Translations under genes and position numbers: made by a program
The notes under the pieces: model-generated
What the model was told of the DNA's origin: nothing
The model's database searches: none
Seen by the model: only the letters and a program-made list of their open reading frames with translations
Shown: one piece after another, positions 8,648-52,014 of the stretch
Layout of the letters: each line of letters starts with the position of its first letter
Numbering within the stretch: the first letter of the stretch is position 1
NCBI GenBank assembly: GCA_963702895.1
Contig: OY969767.1
Coordinates: 2,176,001-2,240,000, forward strand
Source: an uncultured Elusimicrobia bacterium
GTDB taxonomy: Bacteria > Elusimicrobiota > Elusimicrobia > 2-01-FULL-59-12
Length of the DNA stretch: 64,000 bases
Reading direction: 5' to 3'

Positions 8648-8654
8648 CTCAAAG

Positions 8655-9275: not shown

Positions 9276-11048
9276 TCACTTGATAACCACCACCTGCCCC
9301 GTCTTTTTGGCTCCACCTTCGGCCTTCAGTTGATACACGTAGACCCCGGAGGCCACCCGGTCGCCGCTCTCATTGGTCAGGTCCCAGGTGACGGAGTCGC
9401 TTGATCTGGGCAGCGTCTTTACGTGATGCCCCGAGACCGTGAAGATCTTGAGCTCGGTATCGACCGTGAACTGGTCAAAAGTGATCGACCTGGCGGCGTG
9501 CCGGTCGCTCCGCCAGGGGTTGGGATAGACCCGGACCTGATCGAGAGCGGAAGCATGGCTCTGGTCGACAGAGTAGCTGTTGGCAACGAGGGGATGAGGG
9601 TAAGTATAGGGGGTGTAATAGACGGTCCACACGCCTCCAATATACTTGTAGAGCCGACCGGCCTGAATGATGGCTGGATCGACCGTTGGTGTGGCGGGCG
9701 AGGCAACCCAATAGGCATCCCCACCCACCTGCTGTCCATTGGCATCCGCTCGCGGTAGATTGGTGCAGCTGAAGTCCGGAACTCCTGTGCCTCGTCCAAC
9801 CCCATGTTGCGTCGTGCCATTGAAGTTGTCGTTCAGATTGTAGAACTGTGTATTTTCCGTCAGGGGATTGGGTTCGCAGGCCGTGCTGCCAGACCGAATC
9901 TCCGCCTTCTTCTCCGTCCTGTTCCCGGTGTTATTCCAGAAGTACACGTTGTCCGCTTGGCCGGGATGCCCCGTCTGGCTGTCACATCCCTGCAGATTCA
10001 CGATTTCAATGCCCGGTGCGGATGTGCCTGTCCAGATATTGTTGAAGAAAAGTCCCCAGCCGCCACGCATATTCGCCCACCGATACCCTCGCCCGCCGGA
10101 TATCGTGTTCCCGTAGTACTCAACGATCATCGTGCCGGTCTGTCCTGGCGTTGGCGGATAGCTTTCCCAGTTCTGCATCCCGTGAATGTCCCACTCTGGA
10201 CACGTCCCGCTTCCTGCGGCATTCGTCATGTCCCACGAGTTGTATCGCATGACCACCCGAGCGGATTGTCCGATTTCCGTCCAGCCTGCATCAGGAATCG
10301 AGTACGTGGACGAATAGTGAATCGTGTTGTCCTCGAAGAACAGTTGATCCGCCGTGCCGTAAGCGCGCTCCGGGCCGAACTCGTCCCACTCGCTCCACAT
10401 CGTGTCATGGCCCATCACGGACAGGATGAAGCGGCAGCGGTCGAAGTCATTTTTGGCGATGACGCCGCGGACCTGGCCCTTAACCTTGATCGCAAACGTG
10501 CCGCTCCCCGGAACCGAACCATCGTTCTGAATGCGATTGTTCAGGATGATCAAGTGTTTGAGGATGGGTGCGGTGGTGGGTCCGTAGACGTAGATCGCCG
10601 CGGAGTTGGTCATCGTCGCCATGTTCAGGTCAAACGTGAACCCGCTGACCTTGAACAACTCATGGTTGGCGAGTGCCGTTGGGCTGGGGTGAATGTCAAT
10701 GATCGCGTCACCGCGCGTAATCGTGAGCTTGTCCCGCCCCGGCCCCTGGAGGTGAATTCCCCGAGTCAGTCTCAATGTGTTGATCCATGTAGCCGCTCCA
10801 CGTCCCTTGGGGACTATGACCGTATCTCCCGGACTGGCGGTCGCTACGGCTGCTGCGACATCTTCATAAGAGGGGCTGGTCGCGGTAATCGTGGCCGCCT
10901 GCGCTGCAGGGACAGCCAGGAGCAAGAGAAGGCTGTATCGGAGTAACGGAGTAACGGTGTATCGGGGTAACACCTCTAAGAGCGTAATGTGTTTACGTTG
11001 CCGTGACTCCGATACTCCGATACCCCGATACGCCGATACGAAGTTCAC
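9276..11048 (-). CDS. G12: secreted beta-helix-like protein with YPNP C-terminal domain
   Basis: Start at GTG 11048 (GTGA overlap with the G11 stop); leader ending LLLLLAVPAAQA; module ending YTPYTYPHPL; conserved CTD. Confidence 0.88.
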   Translation of the reverse strand: MNFVSAYRGIGVSESRQRKHITLLEVLPRYTVTPLLRYSLLLLLAVPAAQAATITATSPSYEDVAAAVATASPGDTVIVPKGRGAATWINTLRLTRGIHLQGPGRDKLTITRGDAIIDIHPSPTALANHELFKVSGFTFDLNMATMTNSAAIYVYGPTTAPILKHLIILNNRIQNDGSVPGSGTFAIKVKGQVRGVIAKNDFDRCRFILSVMGHDTMWSEWDEFGPERAYGTADQLFFEDNTIHYSSTYSIPDAGWTEIGQSARVVMRYNSWDMTNAAGSGTCPEWDIHGMQNWESYPPTPGQTGTMIVEYYGNTISGGRGYRWANMRGGWGLFFNNIWTGTSAPGIEIVNLQGCDSQTGHPGQADNVYFWNNTGNRTEKKAEIRSGSTACEPNPLTENTQFYNLNDNFNGTTQHGVGRGTGVPDFSCTNLPRADANGQQVGGDAYWVASPATPTVDPAIIQAGRLYKYIGGVWTVYYTPYTYPHPLVANSYSVDQSHASALDQVRVYPNPWRSDRHAARSITFDQFTVDTELKIFTVSGHHVKTLPRSSDSVTWDLTNESGDRVASGVYVYQLKAEGGAKKTGQVVVIK

Positions 11049-13057
11049 TTGATCACCACCACTTTCCCCGTCTTTTTGGCTCCGCCGTCCGCCTTCAGGT
11101 GATACACGTAGACCCCGGAGGCCACCCGGTCGCCGCTTTCGTTCGTCAGGTCCCAACTCACGGAGCTGCTTGATCTCGGCAGCGTCTTCACGTGATGCCC
11201 CGAGACCGTGAAGATCTTGATCTCGGTATCGACCGTGAGCTGGTCAAAGGTGATCGACCTCGCCGCGTGCCGGTCGCTCCGCCAGGGGTTGGGATAGACC
11301 CGGACAGGCGGAGGGTCGGAGGTTCTGGCGGCATAGTCCGGGCCTGGCCCGCAGAGTGTTGGGTAACGGACACAGTCAGTCCGGATCGGGTGCGGGTAGG
11401 TGAAGGGCGTGTAATATGCCATCCAGGTGTCGGGCGCGGCGCATTTGTAGAAAGTCCCCGCAATCGGGCGGGCTGGATTGACGCCCACCATGCCGGTCAT
11501 GTCCGAGCAGGATTGATCCGTTGCCCAGTAGCCAACACCGGGCGTGCAGGTTGCCGGGCGCGCGGCCAGCGTGCCGCACCCAACACCTCCACCGGCCGTT
11601 CCGGTGCCGTCAAAGGACCCCGCTTTTTGCGAAAAGAAATCTTTGTTTTCGGCAATCGGCGATCCCGCTCCCATGTTCAGCCAATTGATATCACCATCCC
11701 TCACCGTGAATCGAGGTGCGACGCCGGCCCAATTGGGCTCGATGGATCCACTCCGATAGGGAGGGACCATGGGAGTCGTGTATTGTGATTTCTTCCAGCA
11801 ATTCCCATAAGGATCGCCTGTGAATTTCTGGCAGTAAATGTCACTCGTTTCGCCGACTGATCCATACAGATGATTGGGCTGCCAGGGAGATGCTGCGTCA
11901 CTGCAGCAATTTTCACTACCTAACTCCAACGGTATTAACACGACCCCGTCGGATCTGGTGTTCCAATTGCCCCAGTAATAGGACTCGGTCGCATGCTGGA
12001 CATAGTTTGAATTGACAGGCCAGAGCCTGTCTGCACACTCTTCTCTCACAGACGTGCCCGACTTGCCTGTTGTTGTCGTCAACAGGCTATTCATAAAGAC
12101 CAAGACCATGCCGCCCCGTTGATCGATCAGATTGTTCAGATATCCGGGAGTTGTCCTGTTCCATTTATTTCCATAGATTTCAATGACCATCATGGACGCA
12201 TTGCCGCAGGTTGAACTCCCAATGCATCCGGCACCGCCCGGCTGATTGCCATGAATGTCGTAAACGTATCCAAAATTGCCATTAAAGGTGTTATAGCGTG
12301 AGGCATACCTTCCACCCTGCCCCCCACTATTCATCATTCCATTGGTGGATGTGTTATAAACGTTATCCTCGAAATACAGATTATTCCCATCACCGAACGC
12401 GCGAGAAGCTCCAAACGCATCCCATTGGACATGGTCGTTCCCGTAAGCCGATGTACTGCCGCCGTTAATCACATTATTATCAACGACACCGTAAAACGTC
12501 CCACTCACGTAGATCGTCCGCGACCCTTTTGCTGTGATTTGGCAGTGGTCGATCCGGACGAACACGGGGATTGCTGTGTTTTGAAAGAGGGTAACAACTC
12601 CAACATTCGAAGCTGCGGGAGCGTCTAAAGTGAAGCCCGATATTCGAAACCGATCGGAACTGTCCGGGACGCTGGGCGCAAACGTGATCAGCGGCGCGAT
12701 CGTTCCTGTAATCTTTGTCGCCAACGCGGATGCACCTCGGAGAACGATGCCTTTGGTGATGGTGAGCGTTTTGTTCCAGGTCGCCGCGCAGGCGGGAACT
12801 TGGACGGTGTCCTGAGACTGGGCCGCGCTCACGGCCGCCTGCACGTCCGCCTGCGAACAGCTGGTGGCATTGATCGTGGCCGCTTGCGCCGCCGGAGCAG
12901 CCAGCAGCAAGAGAAGGCTGTATCGGAGTAACGGGGTAACGGGGTATCGGAGTAACGGAGTAACGGTGTATCGGGGTAACACCTCTAAGAGCGTAATGTG
13001 TTTACGTCGCCGTGACTCCGGTACTCCGATACTCCGATACCCCGTTACGAAAATCAT
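11045..13057 (-). CDS. G11: secreted beta-helix-like protein with YPNP C-terminal domain
   Basis: 670 aa; ATINATSCSQADVQAA module; GCGTLAARPATC; CTD. Confidence 0.9.
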   Translation of the reverse strand: MIFVTGYRSIGVPESRRRKHITLLEVLPRYTVTPLLRYPVTPLLRYSLLLLLAAPAAQAATINATSCSQADVQAAVSAAQSQDTVQVPACAATWNKTLTITKGIVLRGASALATKITGTIAPLITFAPSVPDSSDRFRISGFTLDAPAASNVGVVTLFQNTAIPVFVRIDHCQITAKGSRTIYVSGTFYGVVDNNVINGGSTSAYGNDHVQWDAFGASRAFGDGNNLYFEDNVYNTSTNGMMNSGGQGGRYASRYNTFNGNFGYVYDIHGNQPGGAGCIGSSTCGNASMMVIEIYGNKWNRTTPGYLNNLIDQRGGMVLVFMNSLLTTTTGKSGTSVREECADRLWPVNSNYVQHATESYYWGNWNTRSDGVVLIPLELGSENCCSDAASPWQPNHLYGSVGETSDIYCQKFTGDPYGNCWKKSQYTTPMVPPYRSGSIEPNWAGVAPRFTVRDGDINWLNMGAGSPIAENKDFFSQKAGSFDGTGTAGGGVGCGTLAARPATCTPGVGYWATDQSCSDMTGMVGVNPARPIAGTFYKCAAPDTWMAYYTPFTYPHPIRTDCVRYPTLCGPGPDYAARTSDPPPVRVYPNPWRSDRHAARSITFDQLTVDTEIKIFTVSGHHVKTLPRSSSSVSWDLTNESGDRVASGVYVYHLKADGGAKKTGKVVVIK

Positions 13058-16000
13058 TTGATCACCACCACTTTCCCCGTCATTTTGGCTCCGCCTTCGG
13101 CCTTCAGGTGATAGACGTAGATCCCGGAGGCCACCCGGTCCCCGCTCTCATTGGTCAGGTCCCAGGTGACCTGGCTGCTTGAGGTAGGCAGCGTCTTCAC
13201 GTGGTGCCCCGAGACCGTGAAGATCTTGATCTCGGTGTTGACTGTGAGACTGTCAAACGTGACGGACCTCGTACTGTGACGGTCGCTGCGCCAAGGGTTG
13301 GGATAAACCCGCACGCTGTCCAAATTCGCCGAAACCAGCCTCACCCAGGCACTCGCCCAGGCGCTGGTGCCGTACGCATTGGTCGCCTGCACGCGCAGCG
13401 TGTAGTCTCCCGGAGCAAGATTGAGCGCTCCCAATTGGAAGCGCGGCGCGGTCGTCGCCATAGGGGCTCCGTGGACGATTCCCTGAGCAGCAACTTGACC
13501 CGCCATGGATTGGAAGATAGGCGCTCCCCCCGCGCGCGGGACGAGCTCCCACTGAAATCCGGTCGCTCTGGCAACCTCAGGGATGGCGATCTCACCGCTG
13601 ATCCGAAAGTAACGGCCTTCGACCCCGCGAAGGTCCGGCACGGCCGGCGGCGTGTTGCCGCCACCAGGCGGAGGGGGTGGCAGACCCGTTCTAAGCGGGT
13701 GGGGATAAGGATAAGGCGTATAGGAGGTTGACCAGGTGTTGGGCGCGGTGCATTGGTAGAGCGTGCCGGAAATCGGACTTGCCGGACTGGCACCGACCCT
13801 GCCGGTGAGATCCGTGCAGGATTGGTCCGTGGCCCAATAACCAACACCGGGCGTGCAGGTCGCCGGGCGCGCGGCCAGCGTGCCGCACCCCATCCCCACA
13901 GTCCCATTGAAACCCGCCTGATGATTCCAATAATCAACATTTTCCGTAATGGTGTAAGGCGATCCGACCGCGGCATCGGCGCAGTAGTCCGAGCCTTTGG
14001 TCATGGGGCGGAGAATTCCCCCACCGTAGTTCGCCCATACATACGAATTTTGAACATGCTGGGAGTACGCCGGGGAAGCGGGGCTTTGACAAGAATCACA
14101 TGAATACTGTGCATAGTACGGCTTGGCATAAGAAGAATCACTGGAGTTGTAAAACATTAACTGCCAACTACCCCTATGCGCCATCCAGGTGGAAAAATCC
14201 GGGCTATTGACGATCTTATTCCCGTAGTACTCGGATTTGATCGTGGACCATTGCTCACAAGAATCCTGATTAGGGTTGCAAGAACCGGCCACCGAAGGGC
14301 TGCAATTGGAATTCCCGCATCCGCTGGGGCAGGTATAGCCCGGGCTTGTCGCCATGCTCTGCAATCCGTGATTGACCCACAGGCCCGAAAGGCCGGCGGC
14401 ATTGGCCAAATCCGTGGTGTTGTACCGATAGACATAACCCGGCGCGCCCTGCCCGCTGTCGGTCAGTCCGCCCTCCATGGCCCGGGTAAAACTGATGGTG
14501 TTGTCCTCGATGAAGAAATTCGTCCCGGTCCCATACTCCCTCGGAACCAGCGCCCAGGAGACCGCGTCTCTCCCCATCGTTCTGAGAGAGTACACGACAT
14601 TGATGAAATGATTCAAATAGGCCACGCCATAAACCGGCCCATTAATACTCACACCTGTGTGATCGGAATTTCGGAACGTGTTGTGATGGATTTTGATATT
14701 GGAAATGACTTTCGAGGAACTCCCGTTTTCGATATAGAGCAGGCCCCGGTGTTTCGATAGCGAATGGCCATCCAAGGTAAAACCCGTGATTTCGAATTCC
14801 TCATCATTGTTTTGGGCCGTCTCATCCGGAACATAAGCGATCTGGCCATGGTCGGAGGGTCCGTTCAGGGTAATCGTGGTGGGCCCCCCGATGCCACCCT
14901 GCAACTTGATGCCTTGGGTGAGGCAAAGCAATGTATTCCTTCCACCACAGCTCGTCTCGTTGGACCATGTGCATGAACCGGCCGGGACGCTGATCGTGTC
15001 CCCTCGTTCCGCACGGCTCACAGCGGCCTGGACATCCGCCTGCGAACAGCTGGCGGCGGTGATCGGGGGCCGAACAAATTCATGGGCTCCTATGTCCGGC
15101 GCAGAACCATAGAGCACCTGCCGGCCGCCGGAATCCCGATAGAGCCAAATGGGTGCGCCATCTTCCCACGACAGGGGCGCCGCGAGCGTCACGCGGTTCG
15201 TGGCGTAATCGATCGAGCGGATCTGCGCCACATTCGTCACACGGCCAACAGCGATCCAGTCGGGGAATAACGTGACGCCTTGGGCCATCGCGGCACCCCA
15301 GGTGCCATCCTGAAAGTATTGGGCGTCACGGACCACGAGCGTCACGGAGTTGGAACCCGCGCCGTTGGCTTGGGTGAGGAACGTTCCGCTATCAATAGCC
15401 GGTGAATTGGTCCGAAGCTGAAGATCCGGAAGGGTCAAGCTGGAGGGTTGGGTCAGATCTGGGCTGACAAAGAGCGGATCGCCGTTGGGGGTCAGCCAGT
15501 TCGAAACGACCGTATTCCCGACGGAGTCCTGGATATCGAGTCCACCATAAAGAACGGCCCGGGCGTTGCCATACACGATGTTGTTCTTGATCACATTCCC
15601 TGTGTTCAAGCTCGGATAATAGAAATGGATTCCCATCTGCGGTTCCGGGCAGGTGGAATGCGTGCAGGTGTGGTAATACGGGTAACCATACCCGTTTTTG
15701 TAAACGGTATTGCTGAAAATCCGGTTATTGAGACCGCCGATCGAACCATGCCCGGTCGGCCCGTACTTCGGCATCAGCCCGTTGTTCATGCTGCCGTAAA
15801 AAGCGTTGTACCGGACAATGTTCCTGGAGGACGCCAGCGCCAAACTGTCCGCCCCGTCATTGTTCGGATTGGGCCCTGCGAAACCCAGTCTGTTGTTCTC
15901 CACCAAGTTATAGAGTCCGTCTCTGCCAAAACTATCGGTGATCTGCCAAACCCGGTGGCTGTACGACCCGTTGTAGGCGGGGTTGTCGTATTGGGTGGCG

Positions 16001-16938
16001 GGCCATGTCACGCTGCAGGCGCCATTGTCCGCCGGGTACCACGGCTCGTTATGCGCGACGTTGTTTTTGATGACTTGCCGGGTGCCATAGGTGTCCATGA
16101 CGGCATGCCCGGCATAGGCCATGTAATTGTCTTCGATGGTGATGTGGTGGTTGGCCCCTGTGGTGCAGTTGACACCAGCGCCGCCGCCACAGCTTCCGTT
16201 GGGATAGCCCACACGCACCGCGTCGCCGCCTTCGGAAATGGATGTTCCATTACATCCGCCGCCGGCCGCTAACTTATAGAAGGTATTGTGATGCACCCAA
16301 AGGTCGCTGACATAGCACCGGAAGTCCGTTCCGCCAATGCAGGCCTCCGCCATCGTAAAGTTCCCGCCGCGGAAGGGAGAGGTGACATTGCGAAAAGTGC
16401 ATCTGGCGACTTCAACATGATGAGCGCCGTTGCGAATTAAGTAGTCGGAAAAGTCGGTGAAAAGGAGGCCGTCGATTCGGATATAGCTCTGATTAATCTG
16501 CAACCCCCACATGCGCGTCCCGTAAGTCCCTTTGAGTTCGGGGGTTTCGCCGGGAGCGTTTTTGAAGGTGATCCAGGCGCTCGATGTCCCCGAACGAGCG
16601 GGGAGCAGCGCAGTTGCGTATAGGGTGGAGAAGGAATACGTACCTCCTTTCAAATAAACCCAATCGCCTGCGCTGGCATTGGAATTGGCGGTCCCCAACG
16701 AACAATAGTTGCTCGCGGGATCGCTGGCGCTCTGGCAGCTCGCCCAAGAGGATGTCCCCGTTGGGCTCACCCAGTAGGTGGCCGCCTGAACGGCCAACGG
16801 CGAAAATAGAAAATAGACAATAGCAGCAACATACAGACGCGGCGACGCGGTGACGCGGTGACTCGGTGATGTAGCTGTTTCTCCGTATCGGACGCTCCCC
16901 GTGTCTGCGTGTCCCCGTGTCCCCGTGTCGCTTCTCAT
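13054..16938 (-). CDS. G10: two-module secreted beta-helix protein with CTD
   Basis: 1294 aa; ATYWVSPTG module ending PDIGAHEF, SCSQADVQAA module, Ig-like domain, CTD. Confidence 0.9.
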   Translation of the reverse strand: MRSDTGTRGHADTGSVRYGETATSPSHRVTASPRLYVAAIVYFLFSPLAVQAATYWVSPTGTSSWASCQSASDPASNYCSLGTANSNASAGDWVYLKGGTYSFSTLYATALLPARSGTSSAWITFKNAPGETPELKGTYGTRMWGLQINQSYIRIDGLLFTDFSDYLIRNGAHHVEVARCTFRNVTSPFRGGNFTMAEACIGGTDFRCYVSDLWVHHNTFYKLAAGGGCNGTSISEGGDAVRVGYPNGSCGGGAGVNCTTGANHHITIEDNYMAYAGHAVMDTYGTRQVIKNNVAHNEPWYPADNGACSVTWPATQYDNPAYNGSYSHRVWQITDSFGRDGLYNLVENNRLGFAGPNPNNDGADSLALASSRNIVRYNAFYGSMNNGLMPKYGPTGHGSIGGLNNRIFSNTVYKNGYGYPYYHTCTHSTCPEPQMGIHFYYPSLNTGNVIKNNIVYGNARAVLYGGLDIQDSVGNTVVSNWLTPNGDPLFVSPDLTQPSSLTLPDLQLRTNSPAIDSGTFLTQANGAGSNSVTLVVRDAQYFQDGTWGAAMAQGVTLFPDWIAVGRVTNVAQIRSIDYATNRVTLAAPLSWEDGAPIWLYRDSGGRQVLYGSAPDIGAHEFVRPPITAASCSQADVQAAVSRAERGDTISVPAGSCTWSNETSCGGRNTLLCLTQGIKLQGGIGGPTTITLNGPSDHGQIAYVPDETAQNNDEEFEITGFTLDGHSLSKHRGLLYIENGSSSKVISNIKIHHNTFRNSDHTGVSINGPVYGVAYLNHFINVVYSLRTMGRDAVSWALVPREYGTGTNFFIEDNTISFTRAMEGGLTDSGQGAPGYVYRYNTTDLANAAGLSGLWVNHGLQSMATSPGYTCPSGCGNSNCSPSVAGSCNPNQDSCEQWSTIKSEYYGNKIVNSPDFSTWMAHRGSWQLMFYNSSDSSYAKPYYAQYSCDSCQSPASPAYSQHVQNSYVWANYGGGILRPMTKGSDYCADAAVGSPYTITENVDYWNHQAGFNGTVGMGCGTLAARPATCTPGVGYWATDQSCTDLTGRVGASPASPISGTLYQCTAPNTWSTSYTPYPYPHPLRTGLPPPPPGGGNTPPAVPDLRGVEGRYFRISGEIAIPEVARATGFQWELVPRAGGAPIFQSMAGQVAAQGIVHGAPMATTAPRFQLGALNLAPGDYTLRVQATNAYGTSAWASAWVRLVSANLDSVRVYPNPWRSDRHSTRSVTFDSLTVNTEIKIFTVSGHHVKTLPTSSSQVTWDLTNESGDRVASGIYVYHLKAEGGAKMTGKVVVIK

Positions 16939-19900: not shown

Positions 19901-19940
19901 GAGCAACGGAGGGGTGCTTCGCTAAAAGAGGTCTGTTCAT
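16935..19940 (-). CDS. G9: secreted protein with probable YetA/PcRGLX-like N-terminus and helical-barrel core, plus CTD
   Basis: Signal peptide (LIVAASFLLCSPVYA); VSFGLPVKEG; YYALTGD helical repeats; CTD. Start uncertain (19940, 19952 or 19985); fold call is by eye. Confidence 0.8.
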   Translation of the reverse strand: MNRPLLAKHPSVARHLIVAASFLLCSPVYAFETEVLIGLTKLQSDATTVSFGLPVKEGLLFDAAKVKIKAHPSGDPITNVSSKAILYHFNASGNRTSIKSLLLQFPAAQMRSDSVTVMVVINPNSGGTTSSTMAPFRETSFVSDEKAEVVDRSIAFDGTAYSFVENNVREKTLWTGREPKVLATYPEGYLASSGIFGPQMSRQQLLSKSNLAGLRFISDEFDLFLNSSIYGDGYKMNPDPGSVYDASNYEGWLYDMCDTYLAGYSHLDDVRYYRHALRACSYFAEHIGTTGVWKGYFTGKPSQDSKYSHLRGVAEYYALTGDETAFEAGSNMAQMWYEDPYFVTPYRQGHLRGVDRLWTERLLATSMEGLVYGFELTERPEYRTAAMEMFNTAYRHITTTNQAELTAINLQNFPPQNCFVHSSGQHSEGGTDAWCSSWMAELAVAPLLRYKAITGDGRRVHEVFIRLTRSLRDVGATYRRRTIGYDSSFLSPTDYDSSCDFAGDSSEYARSLTPSYGAGINASGLRDQTIEYDDFNHCADVSALVAFGIHGLIQNDQFSSPFVKGPFRTEGESFVALFHEFSRCAKYGFIGWHRTNRDPRTFTSEKLAPGYFGGDLAAQTTWITESVRAGFPSYPSTPQRKLSWWFNTLMLELATLDETRIDFSGSVRGGFIQGANCPYPATPLPPSAPGVLGPPEDVTPPVVVSGTATCIGDAYATISVVTDEPAACKYDAYPALDFHRYTTIFGTSGGTSHSTTLTGLASNRVYTYYVKCIDAYYNHSTTTPFSIAFNTLGPGGKPLVCEAPLIYVSLDLGGRTVLPVNAQITASAPGHEIRSFSWSVTPLPAGALPAPGTSAGTIARAPTANFSTSSGVANLAPYGLVPGNYQITVTATDTAGRVSIPASANVTLVPADLSAVRVYPNPWRSDRHAARSVTFDSLTVDTEIKIFTVSGHHVKTLPSSSSSVIWDLTNESGDRVASGIYVYHLKAEGGAKKTGQVVVIK

Positions 19941-19991
19941 GGAATGGTTCATCCTTTCGAGAATTATTCTGTTAGTCTCATGCAACTACTA

Positions 19992-20018
19992 ACGACCAGG
20001 GCACGTCCCCCTGGTCGT
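19992..20018. terminator. 10-bp stem-loop directly after the G8 stop (possible attenuator or mRNA stabiliser)
   Basis: acgaccaggg-N7-ccctggtcgt; no good U-tract. Confidence 0.4.
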
Positions 20019-20019
20019 C

Positions 20020-28706: not shown

Positions 28707-28998
28707 GAGAATCATCCAATTCGCAAAAGACATTGTCCCAATCGGAGCCTTCAAGGCGCAGGCCGCGGCGTGGCTGAGTCGTCTTCGGGAAACCGGACAT
28801 TTGGTCGTCATCACACAGAATGGTAAACCGGCAGGGATTCTTCTTTCCCCGTCGGAGTTTGATCGGATCCAGGAGAAAGAGCGATTTTTAGAGTCTGTGG
28901 CCAAAGGCCTTGCAGACGCTGAAGCCAACCGGGTCATGAGCAGCTCAGAGCTCAAGCGACGACTTGGCGCGTGGCGGCAAGCGAAAAAGGCTTCGTGA
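28705..28998 (+). CDS. Phd/YefM family antitoxin
   Basis: 97 aa; FKAQAAAWL...VVITQNGKPAGILLSPSEFD; strong RBS. Confidence 0.9.
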   Translation: MRIIQFAKDIVPIGAFKAQAAAWLSRLRETGHLVVITQNGKPAGILLSPSEFDRIQEKERFLESVAKGLADAEANRVMSSSELKRRLGAWRQAKKAS

Positions 28999-29297
28999 GG
29001 GTTGTTTGGACGGAGCAGGCGCTGGAGCGGCTCCAGGAAATTGAAGATTTTATCTCTCAAGATTCTCCCGAACGAGCGGACCGTTTTATCACCCGCTTGA
29101 TCGAACGCGGCGATGCCGTCGCCTCTTTTCCCAGCACGGGACGCCAAGTCCCTGAGTTGGGATTGGGCTCGATCAGAGAAGTTCTCGAAGGCAACTACCG
29201 CCTTGTGTATCGCATCACTCCGGTGCGCATTGAAGTCCTGACTGTTTTCGAGGGCCACCGGCAGCTGCCGCTCAGCGACATCACGCCGCAAACGTAA
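28995..29297 (+). CDS. RelE/ParE family toxin
   Basis: GTGA overlap with the antitoxin stop; VVWTEQALERLQEIEDFI, FPSTGRQVPE, GNYRLVYRI. Confidence 0.9.
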   Translation: MRVVWTEQALERLQEIEDFISQDSPERADRFITRLIERGDAVASFPSTGRQVPELGLGSIREVLEGNYRLVYRITPVRIEVLTVFEGHRQLPLSDITPQT

Positions 29298-29327
29298 CCC
29301 GCTCATCACTTTACGGTTGTCTCGCAT

Positions 29328-44300: not shown

Positions 44301-45185
44301 GCTGCCGTGAGCCATGAAAGGAGTATAGGTACCCAGTGTATCGGGCACATCAGTGGCAGTAAAATCATTAAACCGAACCACCAGTTTCCCGCCGTTATGA
44401 GTCCCTATCTGTTCCTGGGTATAAGGCAATGTGTAACTTGCATTTGTAATGAAATGATTATCTTCAATGAAGAGAGCCTCGACCGTTCCGGCATCAAGGG
44501 ATGCCCATGAGGCGTCGGCGTTAGCCCGGCTTCCGGCACTAAAACCTATACTTTGTATCCCGTTGTAAAAATAATTATGGTCGATCAATCCTTTCATATG
44601 GTCAAAGGTGATAGGCACGTTTCCAAAATGAAACGTGTTGTGATCAATTCTGATTTGCCCGCCGTGAACGCCTCCCGCCATATCATGAACGCGGATGGCC
44701 GCCGCGGGAGTCCAGTTTGTCATCTGGAAAGTGAATCCGCTGACCCTGACAAGGCTGCTTGCGGTGAATCCCGTAATATTGAAGAACCCATCGGGCATAC
44801 CACCGCTTGCCGTTAATATCGTGTTGCCAGAACCTGCGCCCATGATGCTGAGCGGCTTGCTTACGTTCACCGCCGAAGTCCAAGTGCAGTTCCGTGAGGG
44901 GATCATCAGCACATCTCCAGCAGAGGCGCTGTTGATTGCCGCCTGCACGTCCGCCTGCGAACAGCTGGCGGCATTGATCGTGGCCGCCTGCGCCGGCGGA
45001 GCAGCCAGCAGCAAGAGAAGGCTGTATCGGAGTAACGGGGTAACGGGGTGTCGGAGTAACGGAGTAACGGTGTATCGGAGTAACGGAGTAACGGTGTATC
45101 GGGGTAACACCTCTAACAGCGTACTGTGTTCACGTTGCCGTGACTCCGGTACCCCGATACTCCGATACCCCGTTACGGAAATCAT
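41343..45185 (-). CDS. G3: two-module secreted beta-helix protein with CTD
   Basis: 1280 aa; SCSQADVQAA module; GDFTTIQACANAA module; CTD. Confidence 0.9.
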   Translation of the reverse strand: MISVTGYRSIGVPESRQREHSTLLEVLPRYTVTPLLRYTVTPLLRHPVTPLLRYSLLLLLAAPPAQAATINAASCSQADVQAAINSASAGDVLMIPSRNCTWTSAVNVSKPLSIMGAGSGNTILTASGGMPDGFFNITGFTASSLVRVSGFTFQMTNWTPAAAIRVHDMAGGVHGGQIRIDHNTFHFGNVPITFDHMKGLIDHNYFYNGIQSIGFSAGSRANADASWASLDAGTVEALFIEDNHFITNASYTLPYTQEQIGTHNGGKLVVRFNDFTATDVPDTLGTYTPFMAHGSADGGCGGAGYWQASSCQRRGQSVIEFYNNTESGKRIDFMYISRGSANLIYNNVITGTVSNNPRIMLVEEEYTSDNWSVHRVAWPAEDQIHNTFVWNNTYRGHDFNDGTYGSVETSPTNYDCIASRTPMFCCTGPGTGTCGDNANPVSNPFIRKDRDYFLHAPQATGGRETFVCQAGITQCNGASGSYPTDGTTYPSVGTMVFTASGPNAYSGYTPYPYPHPLQSVTLGGHAYRVHPDGTGDFTTIQACANAAVAGDTCWVAAGSYDEYVRPAHSGSAGQLITFLAEGSVKMPGFGVIGKNYIVIQGFEITDQGFTQHAGASYSWGAVYFKSSTGSRILRNLIHHTQGNCVRLHESAPPSYITIQSNTISYCGSETPAPNNGARGIGAFSDHTLIDGNDISHVTDFIALEGRFNVVRQNVLHDAYETDFPGTSNHLHIDGIESSCAASYYPNPLQYALYENNILRNSPVGHAHFLLLQDSQACGAKNVIVRHNTVDTIGSYFMVANSGFDNIKEYNNTVFQALHTATSEWVVTGRWNSSTGGKIINNLYADTIRDYAQVYNFDTTSQPGFYASNNLAFNSSCGAGCGWQNPIRSEPNVVLNQNPLFVNSGSGDFNLQEESPAKDRGGPLTHVAADDPESGVSLRVDDAGMFQDGQGGLVNPDWIAVGSVGNAAQIASIDYASNLITLSSPLSRRRGDPVHLSRDSSGRLVLWGAAPDIGAHEYCPSGSCPIVLPPPPPPSPPPPGSLSTPTLNLPAYLPVNAEVRAGYSGTVAPAYFSWTFTSMVGPASRVSSPASQVSSPASRVSSPASQVSSPGSRVPSPAPTAVDVGRETPDARHGTLSAGHAPSASFTTASTVASLAAQNLDLGTYLVTVTAHDASGSASSPASAQVTLVSANLDQVRVYPNPWRSDRHAARSVTFDSLTIDTEIKIFTVSGHHVKTLPTSSSSITWDLTNESGDRVASGIYVYHLKAEGGAKKTGKVVVIK

Positions 45186-48043
45186 TTTATCACCACCACT
45201 TTCCCCGTCTTTTTGGCTCCGCCTTCGGCCTTCAGGTGATACACGTAGATCCCCGAGGCCACACGGTCGCCGCTTTCGTTCGTCAGGTCCCAGGTGACCG
45301 AGCTGCTTGAGGTGGGCAGCGTCTTCACGTGGTGCCCCGAGACTGTAAAGATCTTGATCTCGGTATCGATCGTGAGACTGTCAAAAGTGATGGATCTCGC
45401 CGCATGCCGGTCACTCCGCCAGGGGTTGGGATAGACCCGCACCTGATCGAGATTCGCCGAGACGAGCGTCACTTGGGCTGAAGCAGGCGAGGAAGCATTG
45501 CCCGCCGCGTCAAAGGCTGTGACCGTCACCACGTAAGGCCCGAGGTCCAGTCCCGCCGTGGCGAGATTGGCCTGGGGGGTGCGGGTGGTGAAGGAAGCCG
45601 AAGGTGCCGGCTGCGCTCTAGGCTCTAGGCTCGAGGCTCCAGGGGAAGAAGAAGTGCTGTTGCCTAGAGCTTGGAGCCTGGAGCCTGGAGCGACACTTAC
45701 AGGGGTGAAGGTCCAACTGAAATAGGCCGCGGGCGTCGCGCCGGTGTAACCTGCCGTGATCTGGGCGTTGACCGGCAGATACTCCGGCAGATTGAGCGTC
45801 GGCGTGGAGAGGCTCCCAGGCGGTGGAGGCGGTGGAGGGGGTGGAGGAGGTGGAGGAGGCGGCGAAGTCGCCGCCTGGGTCGTCGCGCTGGCCGCGGCCG
45901 AGAGCGCCGAGATATTCCCGGCCGCATCATAAGCGGTCACGCGGTAGCTGTAGGTGGTCGAAGCCGAAAGGCCCGTGCTCGCATAGGACGTGCCCGAGCT
46001 GACGCTCGAGATCCAGACCCCATTGCGATAAATGCCGTAGCCTGCCACCCCGACCGCATCGGTCGAGGCGGCCCAGCTAAGATTGATCGTAGTGGAAGAA
46101 ACGGCCACCGCCACCAGGCCCGTCGGCACCGAAGGGGGGGTCGTGTCCGGCGGAGGGGGTGCTCCACTTGTTGCGGCGACGTAGAGGGTTTTGCTCGCGT
46201 AAAGCGGGTAAACCCTCACGCCGAGCGCTCCGCCGCCCACAGAGCAAGTGTAAGGACTTGCGTTGTCGACCGTGGTCGGGATGCGGTCTTCATAGCAAAC
46301 CACGAACCGGACAAGCTCCGCATCGGAAGGCGTTACGGTCACCACCCCGCCCGACTGAGAATAGGTCGCGCTCAAGGTGTAGCCGCCCGCCTTGTAGGGA
46401 TACGCCCCGATGTCGGGTGTGGCATCGTGACCGAAGTACACCGCCTCCCCGTTGGCCCATGTGAAGGACGGCGTAACGGTGATGGCGTTTCCTGAGATAC
46501 TCACCACGGTCACGACGTCGGTGCCGACCGTGATCGTATCGCCCACCACCACATTGCCGCCATATTGCGTGATGGTCGTATCATCATCAGAAAAGTAGCT
46601 GGCGTCACCCACCATGAACGTCGTGCCCGTATTGTTGGCGGACGTGACCGTCGTGAGCGGACCACCTGCATTTCGTGCGGGTGAGCCAGACTGAAGCGTA
46701 AAATCTCGAGTTGCCGCATTGGTCACTAATGGATTCGTATTCCGGAGAGAATGCGCTTCGGCGTTGATTGTACTCGCGTAATTGATCGATCCGCCTATAT
46801 CGTAAAAAATATTGTAGTCATGCACGGCGGGAGTATCATCATAGACACCGACTGGATTCGTCCCTGGCCACCACGCTTGGTGCCAGATATTGTTCAAGAC
46901 CCCTCGGCCAGCCGCGACGTTACTACCACGGTCATAAGTGACATAATGCGAGGCATATGCGATGGTTTCGTGATAAATTTTGAGGAAAGCCTGTCCGTCC
47001 GCAAGCCCAAAACACTGCCCGCCTGCGTTGCCATTACTGGACCAGACGTTTCGCCGGAATATCGTATAGGCGTCCAAGCTGGCTGAATTGGTTTCGATAT
47101 TGGTACAGTGATGTTCACTTCCGGACTCATCGGCGTAGAAATTCCCCTCATACAGTGAGTGGCCCAAGCCAATAGAATCCTGACCGGATTGAATGAAATC
47201 GGTATGAGATGAAGGAGCCGCATTCACATTATGGCTATAGTTGTTCAGTAGCCTATTTCTTTGCCCAAAGAGATAGATGAAGTCAACCTCGGGGGTGTCG
47301 GATTCGTTATAGGCAATGACGTTGCTGTTGCCACGAACCTGAAAATCTTTGAATGCGGAATGCTTAATCACATTGCCGATAAAGAGACAGTTGTTGGATT
47401 GGTATAGCCTAGCTCCGTTGTCCGTTCTTATGGAATCTCCTTCAAAGTTCTGTATGGTGTTATTCCATATCTCAACATAATCAGCATTTTGCAGGTAGAT
47501 CCCATCGTTTCTGGTATTTCCGCCTTCGACGATAAAACCTATCACTCGAATCCAATCGCCAGTAATGACCCATCCGAAATTCGTCACAGACCCATCAGCC
47601 ACGAAGGTGATGTAGTTTCCGGCAGACCCCGAGCTACTGGCCGTGACTACCTCTGCGTAAGTGCCCGCCTGCACCCGGATCACATCTCCCGCCGCGACGT
47701 GATCGGCCGCCCAGTCGATGGTCCGCCACGCCCCGCCCGAGGTGTTCGTCAATCCGGTGTTGGTGTTGTTCCCATCGGTGCGGACATAATAGGTCGCCGC
47801 CTGCGCCGCCGGAGCAGCCAGCAGCAAGAGAAGGCTGTATCGGAGTAACGGGGTAACGGTGTATCGGAGTAACGTAGTAACGGTGTATCGGAGTAACGGA
47901 GTAACGGTGTATCGGGGTAACACCTCTAAGAGCGTAATGTGTTTACGTTGCTGTGACTCCGATACTCCGATACGCCCCGCCATCACATCGTTGGCGGGCC
48001 CGCCGTGATGTAGTGGCGGGCGATACGCCGATACGAAGTTCAC
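45182..48043 (-). CDS. G2: secreted protein (beta-helix, FN3, Ig-like, CTD)
   Basis: 953 aa; N-terminal module essentially identical to that of G8. Confidence 0.9.
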   Translation of the reverse strand: MNFVSAYRPPLHHGGPANDVMAGRIGVSESQQRKHITLLEVLPRYTVTPLLRYTVTTLLRYTVTPLLRYSLLLLLAAPAAQAATYYVRTDGNNTNTGLTNTSGGAWRTIDWAADHVAAGDVIRVQAGTYAEVVTASSSGSAGNYITFVADGSVTNFGWVITGDWIRVIGFIVEGGNTRNDGIYLQNADYVEIWNNTIQNFEGDSIRTDNGARLYQSNNCLFIGNVIKHSAFKDFQVRGNSNVIAYNESDTPEVDFIYLFGQRNRLLNNYSHNVNAAPSSHTDFIQSGQDSIGLGHSLYEGNFYADESGSEHHCTNIETNSASLDAYTIFRRNVWSSNGNAGGQCFGLADGQAFLKIYHETIAYASHYVTYDRGSNVAAGRGVLNNIWHQAWWPGTNPVGVYDDTPAVHDYNIFYDIGGSINYASTINAEAHSLRNTNPLVTNAATRDFTLQSGSPARNAGGPLTTVTSANNTGTTFMVGDASYFSDDDTTITQYGGNVVVGDTITVGTDVVTVVSISGNAITVTPSFTWANGEAVYFGHDATPDIGAYPYKAGGYTLSATYSQSGGVVTVTPSDAELVRFVVCYEDRIPTTVDNASPYTCSVGGGALGVRVYPLYASKTLYVAATSGAPPPPDTTPPSVPTGLVAVAVSSTTINLSWAASTDAVGVAGYGIYRNGVWISSVSSGTSYASTGLSASTTYSYRVTAYDAAGNISALSAAASATTQAATSPPPPPPPPPPPPPPPGSLSTPTLNLPEYLPVNAQITAGYTGATPAAYFSWTFTPVSVAPGSRLQALGNSTSSSPGASSLEPRAQPAPSASFTTRTPQANLATAGLDLGPYVVTVTAFDAAGNASSPASAQVTLVSANLDQVRVYPNPWRSDRHAARSITFDSLTIDTEIKIFTVSGHHVKTLPTSSSSVTWDLTNESGDRVASGIYVYHLKAEGGAKKTGKVVVIK

Positions 48044-51000
48044 TTAATCACCACCACTTTCCCCGTCTTCTTGGCTCCGCCTTCCGCCTTCAGGTGATAG
48101 ACATAGATCCCCGAAGCCACCCGGTCGCCGCTTTCGTTCGTCAGGTCCCAGGTCACTGAGCTGCTTGAGCTCGGTAGCGTCTTCACGTGGTGTCCCGAGA
48201 CCGTGAAGATCTTAATCTCGGTATCGATCGTGAGACTGTCAAAAGTGACGGACCTCGCCGCGTGCCGGTCGCTCCGCCAGGGATTGGGATAGACCCGGAC
48301 CTGATCGAGATTGGCTGACACCAGCGTCACCTGCGCCGATGCCGGTGAAGAGGCGCTGCCGGAGGCGTCATGGGCCGTGACGGTCACGAGGTATGTTCCC
48401 AGGTCAAGATTCTGCGCGGCAAGGCTTGCGACCGTTGAAGCGGTGGTGAAAGAGGCGGAGGGAGCTCCGAAAGCGCGTCCGACGTCCGACGTGCGACGTC
48501 CAACGTCAACTCCAGACGTTTCATATGAGCCGCTTAGACGTCGGACCCGCCACACATCGGGCGGGCGCCTGTCGTGTGGAGCCTCGGACGTCGGACGGCT
48601 CACCGGTTCGCCGGTTCGGCCCACCTGAGTGAACGTCCAACTGAAATACGCCGGCGCCACAGACCCGCCGTAGCCGGCGCGGATCTCGGCGTTCACCGGC
48701 AGATAAGCCGGCAAGTTCAAGGTCGGGGTGGCCAGGCCGCCTGGTGGCGGAGGGGGCGGCGGAGGCGGAGGGGGTGGCAGGCCCGTTCTGAGCGGGTGGG
48801 GATAAGGATAAGGCGTATAGGAGGTTGACCAGGTGTTGGGCGCGGTGCATTGGTAGAGCGTGCCGGAAATCGGACTTGCCGGATTGGTACCGACCCGACC
48901 GGTGAGATCCGTGCAGGCTTGATCCGTGGCCCAATAGGCAACACCGGGCGTGCAGGTCGCCGGACGCGCGGCCAGCGTGCCGCACCCCATCCCCACAGTC
49001 CCATTGAAACCCGCCTGATGATTCCAATAATCAACATTTTCCGTAATGGTGTAAGGCGATCCGACCGCGGCATCGGCGCAGAAGTCCAAGCCTTTGGTCA
49101 TGGGGCGGAGAATTCCCCCACCGTAGTTCGCCCATACATACGAATTTTGAACATGCTGGGAGTACGCCGGGGAAGCGGGGCTTTGACAAGAATCACATGA
49201 ATACTGTGCATAGTACGGCTTGGCATAAGAAGAATCACTGGAGTTGTAAAACATTAACTGCCAACTACCCCTATGCGCCATCCAGGTGGAAAAATCCGGG
49301 CTATTGACGATCTTATTCCCGTAGTACTCGGATTTGATCGTGGACCATTGCTCACAAGAATCCTGATTAGGGTTGCAAGAACCGGCCACCGAGGGGCTGC
49401 AATTGGAATACCCGCAACAGCTATAACCCGGGCTCACTGACATGCTTTGCAATCCGTGATTGACCCACAGGCCCGAAAGGCCGGTGGCATTGGCCAGATC
49501 CGTGGTGTTGTACCGATAGACATAACCCGGCGCGCCCTGCCCGTGGTCGGTCAGTCCGCCCTCTATGGCCTGGGTAAAACGGATGGTGTTGTCCTCGATG
49601 AAGAAATTCGTCCCGGTCCCATACTCCCTCGGAACTAGCGCCCAGGAGACCGCGTCTCTCCCAAACGTTCTGATCACGTAGCCGACATTGATGAAATGAT
49701 TCAAATAGGCCACGCCATAAACCGGCCCGCTCACAACCACACCCGTATGTAAGGAATTCTGAAACGTGTTGTGGTGGATTTTGATATTGGACATGACTTT
49801 GGAGGTGCTTCCATTCCCTACGTAGAGAAGGCCTTGGTGCTTCGAAAGTGACTGGCCGTCCAAGGTAAATCCCGTGATTTCAAACGCCTCATTATGGGTC
49901 TGTGCCGTTGCATCCGGAATATAAGCGATCTGACCATGGTCGGAGGGTCCGTTCAGGGTAATCGTGGTGGGCCCCCCGATGCCACCCTGCAATTTGATGC
50001 CTTGGGTGAGGGAAAGCAATCGATTATACCCGCCGTAAGAAGTCTCGTTTGACCAGGTGCATGAACCGGCCGGAACGATGATCGTGTCCCCTCGTTCCGC
50101 AAGGTTCACAGCGGCCTGGACATCCGCCTGCGAACAGCTGGCAGCGCTGATCGGAGGCCGAACAAATTCATGGGCTCCCATATCCGGCGCCGTACCATTA
50201 AGCACCTCCCGGCCGCTCGAATCCTTATACAACCACACCGGCGCGTTGGCCGCCCAGCTGAGCGGGGATTTCAGCGTGATCGTGTTGGCCGCATAGTTGA
50301 TCGAGGCGATTGGCGCGCGATTGCCCGCACTCCCCACGGCAATCCAGTCCGCGAAGAAATTCACGTTCCGCGCCAGGTCGGACCCCCACGACCCATCCTG
50401 AAAATATAACGCATCGTTCACTTTCACGGTGATCGAGTTGCTTCCGGAGCCTACGGTGGTCGTTAAAGGGGCGCCCTGATCGATCGCAGGCGAATCCGAT
50501 TGAAGGCGTAAATCGGGCAGGGTCTTGCTGGTGGGATCGTCGAGAGAAGGATTGAGGAATTTAGGGTTGCCTTTGACGGTTGTCCAGTTATTTTCGATGG
50601 TCGCGATCCCCGGATAATCGGCTGGATTCAGTCCCGTGTCGACCGTGATATCAAGGCCCGTGTAGAGAGTCCCGGGATAGAGGTCCGGCAAACTCAGGTA
50701 GTACGAAAAATTATCGTAGACCAGATTGTTTTTGAGGACATTTTCGAGGGTCGCCGAATAAAGGGTGATCCCGGCGAGCTTCCCGGGGCATGTCGAGCAT
50801 CCCGGCTGCGTCTTCTGCATGTAAGGGTAGGTCCACCCGTTGTGGAAAAAGGTGTTGTTGTAGACCCGGTTGTTGGTCGAGCCGGTCCCGCCCGCGCCAA
50901 TCTTGCCGTAGGAGGCGTACTTAAAATAGAGTCCCGCCTGCTGGCCATTGTAAATGGAGTTGAACCGGACGATGTTTTTCGGCGCCGCCAGAGACAACAC

Positions 51001-52014
51001 AGCCTCCCCCGGATTGTTCGGGTTGGCGGAAGAATGGCCCATTCGATTACTCTCCATCAACACATAAGTCCCGTCGCGTCCGAAATCTTCCGACAACTGC
51101 ATGCCTCGGTGACCGTATTTCCCGTTCGGCATGGGCGGATAGCCGCAGGTGCCGCCAGAAGTGTCCGGTATCCAGCCTTCGTTGTGTAGCACGTTGTTGC
51201 GGAATACGGTGAAGGCGCCGTAATTGTCAAAGAGCGCGTGCCCCGCGTACTCCAGCATATTGTCTTCGATCGTGTTGAAGTTGTTATCACCGGTATAGGG
51301 TGGGTACGACGGATTCGGCGGGTCCCCGATGCGCACCAGATCACGCCCTTCATAGCATTGGGTTGGATCATTCGCGGTGCGGTGGGCCTTGGAAAACGTA
51401 TTGTGGTGGACCCAGTTGTGGGTGCTGTAACAACTCATCACGCTCCCGCCGCTGCACCAGCTGCCGATGAAAAAGCCTTGGACAACATCCTCGCCGGTCT
51501 CGCTCCGGAAAACGCAGCGGGCGACTTCGTTATAGCTGGACGAATGGATGATCATGGCCCAGCGCGCGAGGTTGAGAAACGTGATCCCATCGACCTTGAT
51601 GTATCGATTTTTCGAAAGCACCAGACCCCAGCCGCAGTCAAGGCATCCAGTCCCTTTGATCACCGGCGTTTCACCCGGAGCGGCGGCGAAGGTAATGCGG
51701 GAATTCTTGTCCGCGCCGGAATTCGCCGGTGAAATGCCGGCCTGGCCCGGAGTGGACAATAAATACGTGCCTCCTTTGAGGTAAACCAGATCGCCCGCAA
51801 CCGCCTTGGCATTGGCGGTGGGCAGTGAACAATAGTTGCTTCCCGGATCGCTCTCGCTCTGGCAGCTCGCCCAGGAGGATGTCCCCGTTGGGCTCACCCA
51901 ATAGGTCGCCGCTCTAAGCTCACGGCTGCCCGCAAACAACAGCCCCGCGCATAAAGCGGCGCCGAACACCCAACGGGTGCCTGACCTATGAGATTGAGAT
52001 GTCAATTGGCGCAT
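48040..52014 (-). CDS. G1: two-module secreted beta-helix protein with CTD (first gene of the array)
   Basis: 1324 aa; conventional signal peptide; paralog of G10. Confidence 0.9.
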   Translation of the reverse strand: MRQLTSQSHRSGTRWVFGAALCAGLLFAGSRELRAATYWVSPTGTSSWASCQSESDPGSNYCSLPTANAKAVAGDLVYLKGGTYLLSTPGQAGISPANSGADKNSRITFAAAPGETPVIKGTGCLDCGWGLVLSKNRYIKVDGITFLNLARWAMIIHSSSYNEVARCVFRSETGEDVVQGFFIGSWCSGGSVMSCYSTHNWVHHNTFSKAHRTANDPTQCYEGRDLVRIGDPPNPSYPPYTGDNNFNTIEDNMLEYAGHALFDNYGAFTVFRNNVLHNEGWIPDTSGGTCGYPPMPNGKYGHRGMQLSEDFGRDGTYVLMESNRMGHSSANPNNPGEAVLSLAAPKNIVRFNSIYNGQQAGLYFKYASYGKIGAGGTGSTNNRVYNNTFFHNGWTYPYMQKTQPGCSTCPGKLAGITLYSATLENVLKNNLVYDNFSYYLSLPDLYPGTLYTGLDITVDTGLNPADYPGIATIENNWTTVKGNPKFLNPSLDDPTSKTLPDLRLQSDSPAIDQGAPLTTTVGSGSNSITVKVNDALYFQDGSWGSDLARNVNFFADWIAVGSAGNRAPIASINYAANTITLKSPLSWAANAPVWLYKDSSGREVLNGTAPDMGAHEFVRPPISAASCSQADVQAAVNLAERGDTIIVPAGSCTWSNETSYGGYNRLLSLTQGIKLQGGIGGPTTITLNGPSDHGQIAYIPDATAQTHNEAFEITGFTLDGQSLSKHQGLLYVGNGSTSKVMSNIKIHHNTFQNSLHTGVVVSGPVYGVAYLNHFINVGYVIRTFGRDAVSWALVPREYGTGTNFFIEDNTIRFTQAIEGGLTDHGQGAPGYVYRYNTTDLANATGLSGLWVNHGLQSMSVSPGYSCCGYSNCSPSVAGSCNPNQDSCEQWSTIKSEYYGNKIVNSPDFSTWMAHRGSWQLMFYNSSDSSYAKPYYAQYSCDSCQSPASPAYSQHVQNSYVWANYGGGILRPMTKGLDFCADAAVGSPYTITENVDYWNHQAGFNGTVGMGCGTLAARPATCTPGVAYWATDQACTDLTGRVGTNPASPISGTLYQCTAPNTWSTSYTPYPYPHPLRTGLPPPPPPPPPPPPGGLATPTLNLPAYLPVNAEIRAGYGGSVAPAYFSWTFTQVGRTGEPVSRPTSEAPHDRRPPDVWRVRRLSGSYETSGVDVGRRTSDVGRAFGAPSASFTTASTVASLAAQNLDLGTYLVTVTAHDASGSASSPASAQVTLVSANLDQVRVYPNPWRSDRHAARSVTFDSLTIDTEIKIFTVSGHHVKTLPSSSSSVTWDLTNESGDRVASGIYVYHLKAEGGAKKTGKVVVIK

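Follow-up and report, generated by a model that had tools for sequence, protein, structure and literature searches.

When a chromosome carries a row of genes whose products end alike and otherwise differ, one would like to know whether the variable parts were diversified in place or came from elsewhere. This question is raised by a stretch of 64,000 nucleotides from an uncultured Elusimicrobia bacterium (contig OY969767.1, positions 2,176,001 to 2,240,000; the whole of this stretch is called the window, and coordinates count from its first letter), in which 12 intact open reading frames (ORFs), all on the minus strand, fill exactly positions 9276-52014. A preliminary description had recognised 12 co-oriented genes with a near-identical C-terminal domain (CTD), and this we confirm: the CTD has 86 residues (258 bp) in all 12 genes, is 84-100% identical at the protein level and 84-95% at the DNA level, and scores in 12 of 12 cases above the cut-off of TIGR04183 (T9SS type A sorting domain, T9SS being the type IX secretion system), while PF18962 falls below its Pfam cut-off. 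The same description had read the array as a candidate combinatorial diversification system. We think it probable that it is a co-translated tandem operon with predicted T9SS-like export, in which a native frame has been homogenised by recombination and the beta-helix cargo likely came from other organisms.

Array architecture and the shared frame

Twenty passenger domains, for the most part right-handed beta-helices that have diverged deeply, were delimited (S seven times, T with its U four times, Y three times, W and F twice each, P once and the domain of g9 once), arranged as follows:

g1, 48040..52014, minus strand: leader, W beta-helix (50167-51906), S beta-helix (48790-50154), polyproline, immunoglobulin (Ig)-like domain, CTD
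g2, 45182..48043, minus strand: leader with repeats, T beta-helix (46397-47794), U domain, FN3, Ig-like, CTD
g3, 41343..45185, minus strand: leader, S (43635-44981), F beta-helix (42138-43610), Ig-like, CTD
g4, 37810..41346, minus strand: leader, S (39832-41142), Y beta-helix with choice-of-anchor Q end (38605-39822), Ig-like, CTD
g5, 33131..37813, minus strand: leader, T (36080-37588), U, FN3, P pectate-lyase-like domain (33815-35539), Ig-like, CTD
g6, 29328..33134, minus strand: leader, S (31599-33032), Y (30081-31583), Ig-like, CTD
g7, 24366..28706 (the ATG at 28706 being the likely start), minus strand: leader, T (27120-28601), U, F (25416-26867), FN3, Ig-like, CTD
g8, 20020..24369, minus strand: leader, T (22762-24159), U, FN3, Y (20821-22215), Ig-like, CTD
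g9, 16935..19985, minus strand: unrelated passenger (17904-19850), Ig-like, CTD
g10, 13054..16938, minus strand: leader, W (15079-16779), S (13693-15066), variant Ig-like, CTD
g11, 11045..13057, minus strand: leader, S (11384-12877), CTD, without Ig-like domain
g12, 9276..11048 (start a GTG overlapping the g11 stop), minus strand: leader, S (9588-10892), 14-residue stump of a g4-type Y module, CTD

The module types, their varied orders and the junctions after YPHPL or DIGAxE are as had been described. The passengers are, however, not the small reused kit that was proposed: modules of the same type are mostly 25-47% identical, i.e. members of a family and not copies, recent copies are limited to three pairs (T of g2 and g8, differing by 1 nt in 1398, S of g1 and g10, at 90% amino acid identity, and T of g5 and g7, at 79%), W, T, F and Y form one broad beta-helix group in alignment, and P in g5 adds a further beta-helix type. 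P had no match among solved structures, and the g9 passenger had no Pfam or PDB sequence match and a weak lead to PcRGLX/GH127-like proteins (structure-atlas score 0.88).

At nine of the 11 junctions the start of the next gene overlaps by 4 bp (ATGA or GTGA) with the final codon and stop of the preceding CTD, the exceptions being g6/g7 and g8/g9. The leaders of g2-g5, g11 and g12 are filled by an inverted-repeat element with 8-bp units, exemplified in g4:

41160..41340, minus strand: 8-bp-unit inverted-repeat element (z -3.4)

The hairpins of these repeats differ in length in frame (24-nt steps and one 45-nt insert), and related repeats are scattered over the genome. Such in-frame length changes suggest that the coupled starts are in use; phase variation by slippage of the repeats is possible, though unsupported. 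In the Ig-like domain before the CTD (e.g. window 38200-38400) there are also in-frame 7-bp tandem repeats in a loop (SRVSSPAS), whose copy number varies by gene and which are dispersed in the genome.

Along the 258 bp of the CTD, the nearest neighbour of a given copy switches from third to third, and 298 of 595 pairs of informative sites are incompatible, with fewer incompatibilities among neighbouring sites (p 0.0015). Among named genomes the closest CTD matches are in Elusimicrobiota, and the genome that carries the array has 16 more CTD matches, which are more distant than the array CTDs. A tree of 38 CTD rows, four of them from the array, groups these four together (support 99), sister (support 100) to three tandem CTDs of a congener (G003:C81); in the array of that congener a stop overlaps the next ATG at one junction, and there are mosaic repeats 560-1,060 bp long. 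Comparison with relatives had been named as a check, and array content does differ in this congener, with cargo unrelated to that studied here (a CEMIP-like helix, a GDSL-like domain and one without assignment); tandem CTD genes occur in G007, G003:C7 and G002 as well. Judged from these sequences, the array frame is shown to be both recombinant and species-specific.

Exchange also involves the passengers. g2 and g8 have 1,996 bp in common at 97%, and after the near-identical T module g8 goes on to a Y module. Between g2 and g5, DNA identity is 98-100% up to residue 116, 41-65% over most of the T interior and again 95-100% from residue 570; 21 of 23 synonymous sites agree in the first 40 residues of T, and the interior seems saturated. 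In g1 and g10 the W interiors are about 50% alike (W is 47% identical) and S is 75-100% alike in DNA, and g4 and g10 are similar (86-95%) in the C-terminal block of S only. An F module has been inserted in g7 between two PPPDT linkers, and g4 and g12 have their S-Y junction in common although their S domains are 34% alike. Identity that falls from about 98% to about 50% within a domain whose ends are conserved marks recombinational replacement, and these alignments show that some modules were copied, inserted or deleted between array genes. Breakpoints lie in conserved domain ends at many different positions, with junctions just after YPHPL or D[IMVA]GAxE; the earlier proposal of recombination with conserved framework DNA as crossover points is thus supported by the breakpoint and CTD incompatibility analyses.

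Origin and likely role of the passenger domains

Where do the passengers come from? Eighteen of the 20 modules could be compared with outside sequences gathered for this analysis (P and the g9 domain have no array paralogue), and 17 of these matched an outside sequence better than any array paralogue other than a recent twin. Examples of outside identities are, for S, 76% in g3 (to P0226), 63% in g11 (P0139) and 60% in g4 (P0001); for T, 67% in g2 (P0252) and 69% in g7 (P0321); and for W, 59% in g10 (P0421). The S domain of g3 thus stands at 76% to an outside protein versus 27-31% to neighbouring S domains. In a 250-row FastTree the seven S domains need six origins, five of them forced by support of at least 95, and the four T domains need two. 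Monophyly of S is rejected by an approximately unbiased test (p-AU 3e-63; 22 rows, i.e. the seven array S domains and their 15 best outside relatives), and the module phylogenies, which had been suggested as a check, largely refute plain duplication of a native gene.

Within the phylum these domains are scarce. A sample of 400 further Elusimicrobiota genomes yielded S in two, as a strong match in one and a weak match in the other, and not at all in its five genus or family members; a W/T/F/Y profile gave partial matches only (E >= 6e-25), in six of 60 relatives. A distant Elusimicrobiota genome (G249, loci L126 and L119) has four S domains, at least one apparently before a CTD-like end, a possible independent capture. 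No passenger copies or silent cassettes were found elsewhere in the genome. Sequence comparison thus shows the passengers to be polyphyletic, with closer relatives outside the genome, and the notion of a dedicated diversification system is not supported: most modules are separate lineages nearest to outside relatives, there are no silent cassettes, and no tyrosine or serine recombinase lies within about 289 kb. Some of the outside relatives may, to judge by sequence style only, be proteins of the Candidate Phyla Radiation (CPR) or DPANN.

The model of S is a right-handed beta-helix (pLDDT 92.7) whose best structure matches are a phage protein (Z 25.9, root-mean-square deviation (rmsd) 2.5, 269 aligned residues), AlgE epimerases (Z 24.8 and 24.4), a Klebsiella phage depolymerase (23.2) and RbmB (23.0). 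T with U (pLDDT 95) best matches an alginate lyase (Z 26.8, rmsd 2.5, 260 aligned), and also BT_1002, AlgE7 and RbmB. Identities in all these matches are 10-18%, which indicates the fold class only. S has no Pfam family; among 50%-identity clusters, 2,292 are related to it at E<=1e-30 and 8,811 at E<=0.001, and its profile matches the N-terminal part of AlgE (E 1.6e-5 to 2e-4). It has a conserved D-x-H-G, with the H invariant in 123 rows, which HMMER aligns to a different DxH of AlgE; for AlgE mannuronan C5-epimerase, the residues given are Tyr149, Asp152, His154 and Asp178 (PMC7385640). Many relatives of F carry PF22842 (Pel9A-like).

Outside the array these domains often stand alone, between a signal peptide and a short PxxPxxL stub (S in 27 of 120 proteins, T in 34 of 120, F in 21 of 56), and other outside proteins with S, T or F have dockerin, PKD, LamG or T9SS tails. 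The stub (P0252, P0253, L139, L145, L147, L154) resembles the first FN3 strand and could be a donor strand or a sorting signal. We scanned the neighbours of S in 21 of 76 metagenome loci, picked mostly by length and covering 110 of 143 listed ORFs (L210 was left out). Polysaccharide-synthesis genes lie beside S in 15 of the 21, with Wzx, Wzy or Wza/Wzc in 12; of the remaining loci, two are beta-helix clusters, two look phage-like and two have no assignment. S is also encoded in 116 viral-contig stretches. From fold and context we infer that the cargo may act on bacterial exopolysaccharide. Of the glycan-binding or depolymerising library proposed before, the folds, which are of polysaccharide lyase, epimerase and tailspike type, are supported, and an internal combinatorial origin is not.

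Export, toxin-antitoxin pair and surroundings

Nine PorV genes score above cut-off in the genome, many of them adjoining CTD genes, and there is one candidate for the translocon:

L114:7972-13407: SprA-like gene, 1,811 residues, adjoining comF and lptF/lptG

A reduced T9SS-like route for the array proteins, and their export to the cell surface, are both likely on these sequence grounds. We found no description of T9SS-like export in Elusimicrobiota in the literature searched.

Between g6 and g7, and antisense to the array, lies a type II toxin-antitoxin (TA) pair (Phd/YefM-ParE) that the preliminary description had missed. It is listed here with the promoter-like sites:

28705..28998, plus strand: Phd/YefM antitoxin (PF02604, E 3.9e-15, above cut-off)
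28971..29297, plus strand: ParE-family toxin (PF05016, E 2.4e-16, above cut-off), one of two ParE matches in the genome
28660..28688, plus strand: sigma70-like promoter of the TA pair, an 11/12 consensus match only, overlapping on the opposite strand the DNA for the likely g7 signal peptide
52016..52043, minus strand: sigma70-like site just upstream of g1, in an AT-rich spacer, not above chance (three sites found, 1.7 expected)

The g7 ORF begins with 207 codons that are antisense to the TA operon. In window 28602-29327 the g7 frame is open for 243 codons from an ATG directly after the g6 stop, across the antisense of the entire operon, and the likely g7 ATG and the antitoxin ATG lie in one common CATG. 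In chromosomal integrons, TA cassettes kill cells that excise too much (PMC13108822); from a single case, we infer that the pair here may stabilise the array. There is no tyrosine recombinase near the array (four in the genome, the nearest about 289 kb away) and no serine recombinase either (the sole genome copy is farther than about 289 kb). ComEC is present in the genome, but since it also occurs in 10 of 14 control genomes it says little.

The genome is a single contig of 2.72 Mb without N, with 57% G+C and 98% completeness. On one side the array adjoins a tRNA-Gly/Thr-tuf-nusG region with an IS1380, and on the other a divergent protease gene with a CTD, as well as an IS110 and an M48 peptidase:

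window 4829-6175: IS1380, 7 identical copies in the genome
52393..56109, plus strand: divergent subtilase/M11 protease gene, its CTD more distant (56% identity) and outside the homogenised set
window 56335-57378: IS110, 3 identical and 2 related copies in the genome

Three tRNAs were the sole Rfam matches. Beside the intact tRNA-Gly(TCC) and tRNA-Thr, on the minus strand at window 8650-9060 and 8180-8290, lie broken tRNA copies, namely the 5' half of a tRNA-Gly and 3' halves whose T loop carries an inserted twin hairpin. Window 60396-63920 holds a minus-strand cluster with a pilin-like protein (weak ComGD match) and ORFs without assignment. In four relatives the tuf copies found belong to the other tuf locus or lie at a contig end.

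For the assembly, contigs of a sequencing run (X1), of low depth and with a longest piece of 372 bases, were placed on the array. In the first stretch tested six of eight listed pieces showed no difference and the other two differed by 4 and 17 letters; in the second, again six of eight showed none and two differed by 6 and 7. All differing pieces lie in repeated parts of the frame, and two match exactly in the other tested stretch. X1, which may not be independent of the assembly, contains no read or contig that spans the array, leaving the gene order without independent confirmation, and two further runs (X2 and X3) hold almost no sequence of the stretch. Joints in X1 at 24238-24366, 33076-16900, 47973-48021 and 51912-48040 were considered as rearranged alleles and rejected, as they fit other array leaders or are single low-depth contigs; X1, the one run containing the strain, gives no evidence of rearranged alleles.

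Readings of the array and known systems

In the reading that we favour, the native frame (leader, FN3/Ig stalk and CTD) would be kept uniform by recombination between copies. Crossovers would fall at family-wide conserved motifs of domain ends (the helix-cap start, YTPYxYPHPL, DIGAYE, PPPDTTPP and polyproline), and would arise, over evolutionary time, by ordinary recombination of the RecA type or by microhomology. With the CTD end providing the next gene's start codon, a new unit could be translated at once, and the TA pair may restrict loss of the array by deletion between repeats. Each domain would bind, and perhaps cut, its own bacterial exopolysaccharide or capsule, and together they would offer many kinds of grip or depolymerase with which to forage on biofilm matrix or attach to other cells. 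Since there is no nearby recombinase and there are no silent cassettes, this would be evolutionary shuffling and horizontal capture, and it is not shown to be programmed switching. Such an array would be a cellular counterpart to phage tailspike swapping, a fixed export frame with horizontally acquired beta-helices, and a testable handle on the feeding or attachment of free-living Elusimicrobiota. In S, moreover, a large family of beta-helices comes to light that no Pfam model covers and that is linked to exopolysaccharide clusters and viruses; its members are candidate capsule or biofilm depolymerases, and six of its lineages lie in one operon.

Several observations weigh against this reading. 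The W domain of g1 is the exception among the 18 modules, with an array paralogue at 479 bits versus 465 for the best outside match, and the result for Y of g8 rests on weak scores. The best outside identities are just 44-76%, none close enough to name a donor, and the codon use of the passengers stays for the most part inside what the genome shows (5th-78th percentile, three S domains lying at the 5th-10th), which is a weak test for recent transfer. Polyphyly does not say how many donors there were: outside genomes contain old paralogues of S, P and Y in tandem clusters (L145, L154), and 15 of 80 outside loci have more than one S gene (duplicates included), so that a few cluster transfers could yield the same tree. 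As to function, structure matches at 10-18% identity speak for fold class and not for activity, and the counts from the 21 length-picked S loci stand without a background control. As to export, the SprA-like protein (TIGR04189, E 2.5e-50) falls, with 171 bits versus a cut-off of 200, below its family cut-off; PorU and PorP had no match in the genome, the controls being silent too; and signal peptides were judged by eye, as a hydrophobic stretch ending in AxA before the first module, in leaders that are unusually long. Finally, a single TA pair may be there by chance.

More tentatively, the array could be an integrase-free capture platform, a TA-guarded coupled operon in which leader and CTD serve as landing pads and which has repeatedly taken beta-helices from capsule clusters, phages and symbionts of other microbes. 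Enzymes with which producers treat their own polysaccharides would thereby become a bacterial "tailspike arsenal" to recognise or strip prey and biofilm. If so, each passenger would be a trace of a polysaccharide, and of an organism, encountered by this lineage.

Rather unlikely, in our opinion, is the gain of one or two donor clusters of already diverged beta-helix paralogues en bloc, which were then fused to the CTD and shuffled in the array without repeated capture. Genes in the outside tandem clusters just mentioned do have DTTPPxxPxGL stubs at their ends that are homologous to the beginning of the array FN3, and the largely host-like codon use would also fit. However, the nearest outside relatives differ widely in architecture (LamG with dockerin, stand-alone with a short stub, or with an archaeal-pilin-like leader), the interiors replaced between g2 and g5 lie between ends still 98-100% identical, so that a second divergent allele would have been needed late, and the sister frame of the congener is filled with other cargo.

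It is improbable that the modules are rearranged at a high rate within a lifetime by a programmed process of integron-like or antigenic-variation-like type. In favour of such a system are same-strand operon units bearing repeated frame sequences, an antisense TA pair that bears a promoter and sits in the middle of the array, like those of chromosomal integrons (PMC13108822), 8-bp leader repeats that could slip, and an IS110-family gene 4 kb from g1. Yet no tyrosine or serine recombinase is near, both insertion sequences are multi-copy elements, breakpoints lie at many different places, there are no silent cassettes, frames that differ by 5-16% in DNA imply slow exchange, and the X1 contig joints fit other array genes.

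Plain birth-and-death duplication of a native gene whose exposed domains diverge fast is more doubtful still: it would account for the three recent intra-array copies, and diversifying selection also yields patterns of conserved anchor and variable tip, but the origin tests largely refute it, given the rejected monophyly of S, the far closer outside relative of the g3 S domain and the near absence of S from the phylum sample. Least probable of all is an artefact of assembling repeats, to which the long g2/g8 identity and the lack of a spanning read or contig lend some colour, but against which stand the single-contig genome, 12 intact frames, copies differing by 5-16%, exactly matching X1 pieces, and a congener with the same CTD-stop/ATG overlap and mosaic repeats.

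How, then, does the array compare with known systems? Silent-cassette antigenic variation (of vls, pilS or tpr type) relies on promoterless partial cassettes and one expression site, whereas here all 12 genes are full length and no passenger copies occur elsewhere in the genome. Chromosomal integrons, too, line up acquired coding units on one strand and contain a TA pair that bears a promoter (PMC13108822), although such a pair is not integron-specific; unlike integrons, the array has no integrase near, and each of its units is joined in frame to the common leader and CTD. By the tests made, the array is neither an integron nor a silent-cassette system. The right-handed parallel beta-helix is that of AlgE4/6/7, RbmB, PL6, PL9 (Pel9A) and the PL31-type alginate lyase 6kfn, at only 10-18% identity and without a clear match of catalytic residues.

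Neither the array nor the S family was described in the literature that we searched (subscription papers lay outside coverage), and the preliminary description had not recognised the array as a described system; mosaic secreted families with a shared anchor, however, are known. In phage tailspike and receptor-binding proteins the anchor follows the lineage, beta-helix cargo is exchanged horizontally, and conserved motifs have been proposed as recombination hotspots (PMC10408124). Conserved anchor and exchanged cargo are common to both; the present array differs in being a chromosomal 12-gene operon whose anchor is a C-terminal sorting domain plus leader, often with two beta-helices per protein. 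In Porphyromonas gingivalis, RgpA, Kgp and HagA are likewise T9SS CTD cargo, diversified by ordinary recombination through domain rearrangement and allelic exchange (PMC5266723), but there exchange is within a species, whereas the array modules are closest to distant organisms, form one coupled operon and have a host outside Bacteroidota. The mosaic adhesive trimer (MAT) fibres of Bdellovibrio, too, make up a set of chimeric surface proteins that differ in their tips, and one of them was shown to bind surface glycans (PMC10769870). MATs are trimeric beta-prism fibres, many with S74 chaperones; no match to S74 or fibre families was found in the array proteins, whose beta-helices were modelled as single chains. 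A preprint reports giant proteins from Elusimicrobiota and links such proteins to predation in Omnitrophota (10.1101/2023.11.21.568195). What our analysis adds to these precedents is the likely foreign origin of the cargo, with ordinary recombination as the mechanism; what is less ordinary here is the scale, the coupled operon with its TA pair, and a cargo of many outside lineages from an unmodelled family.

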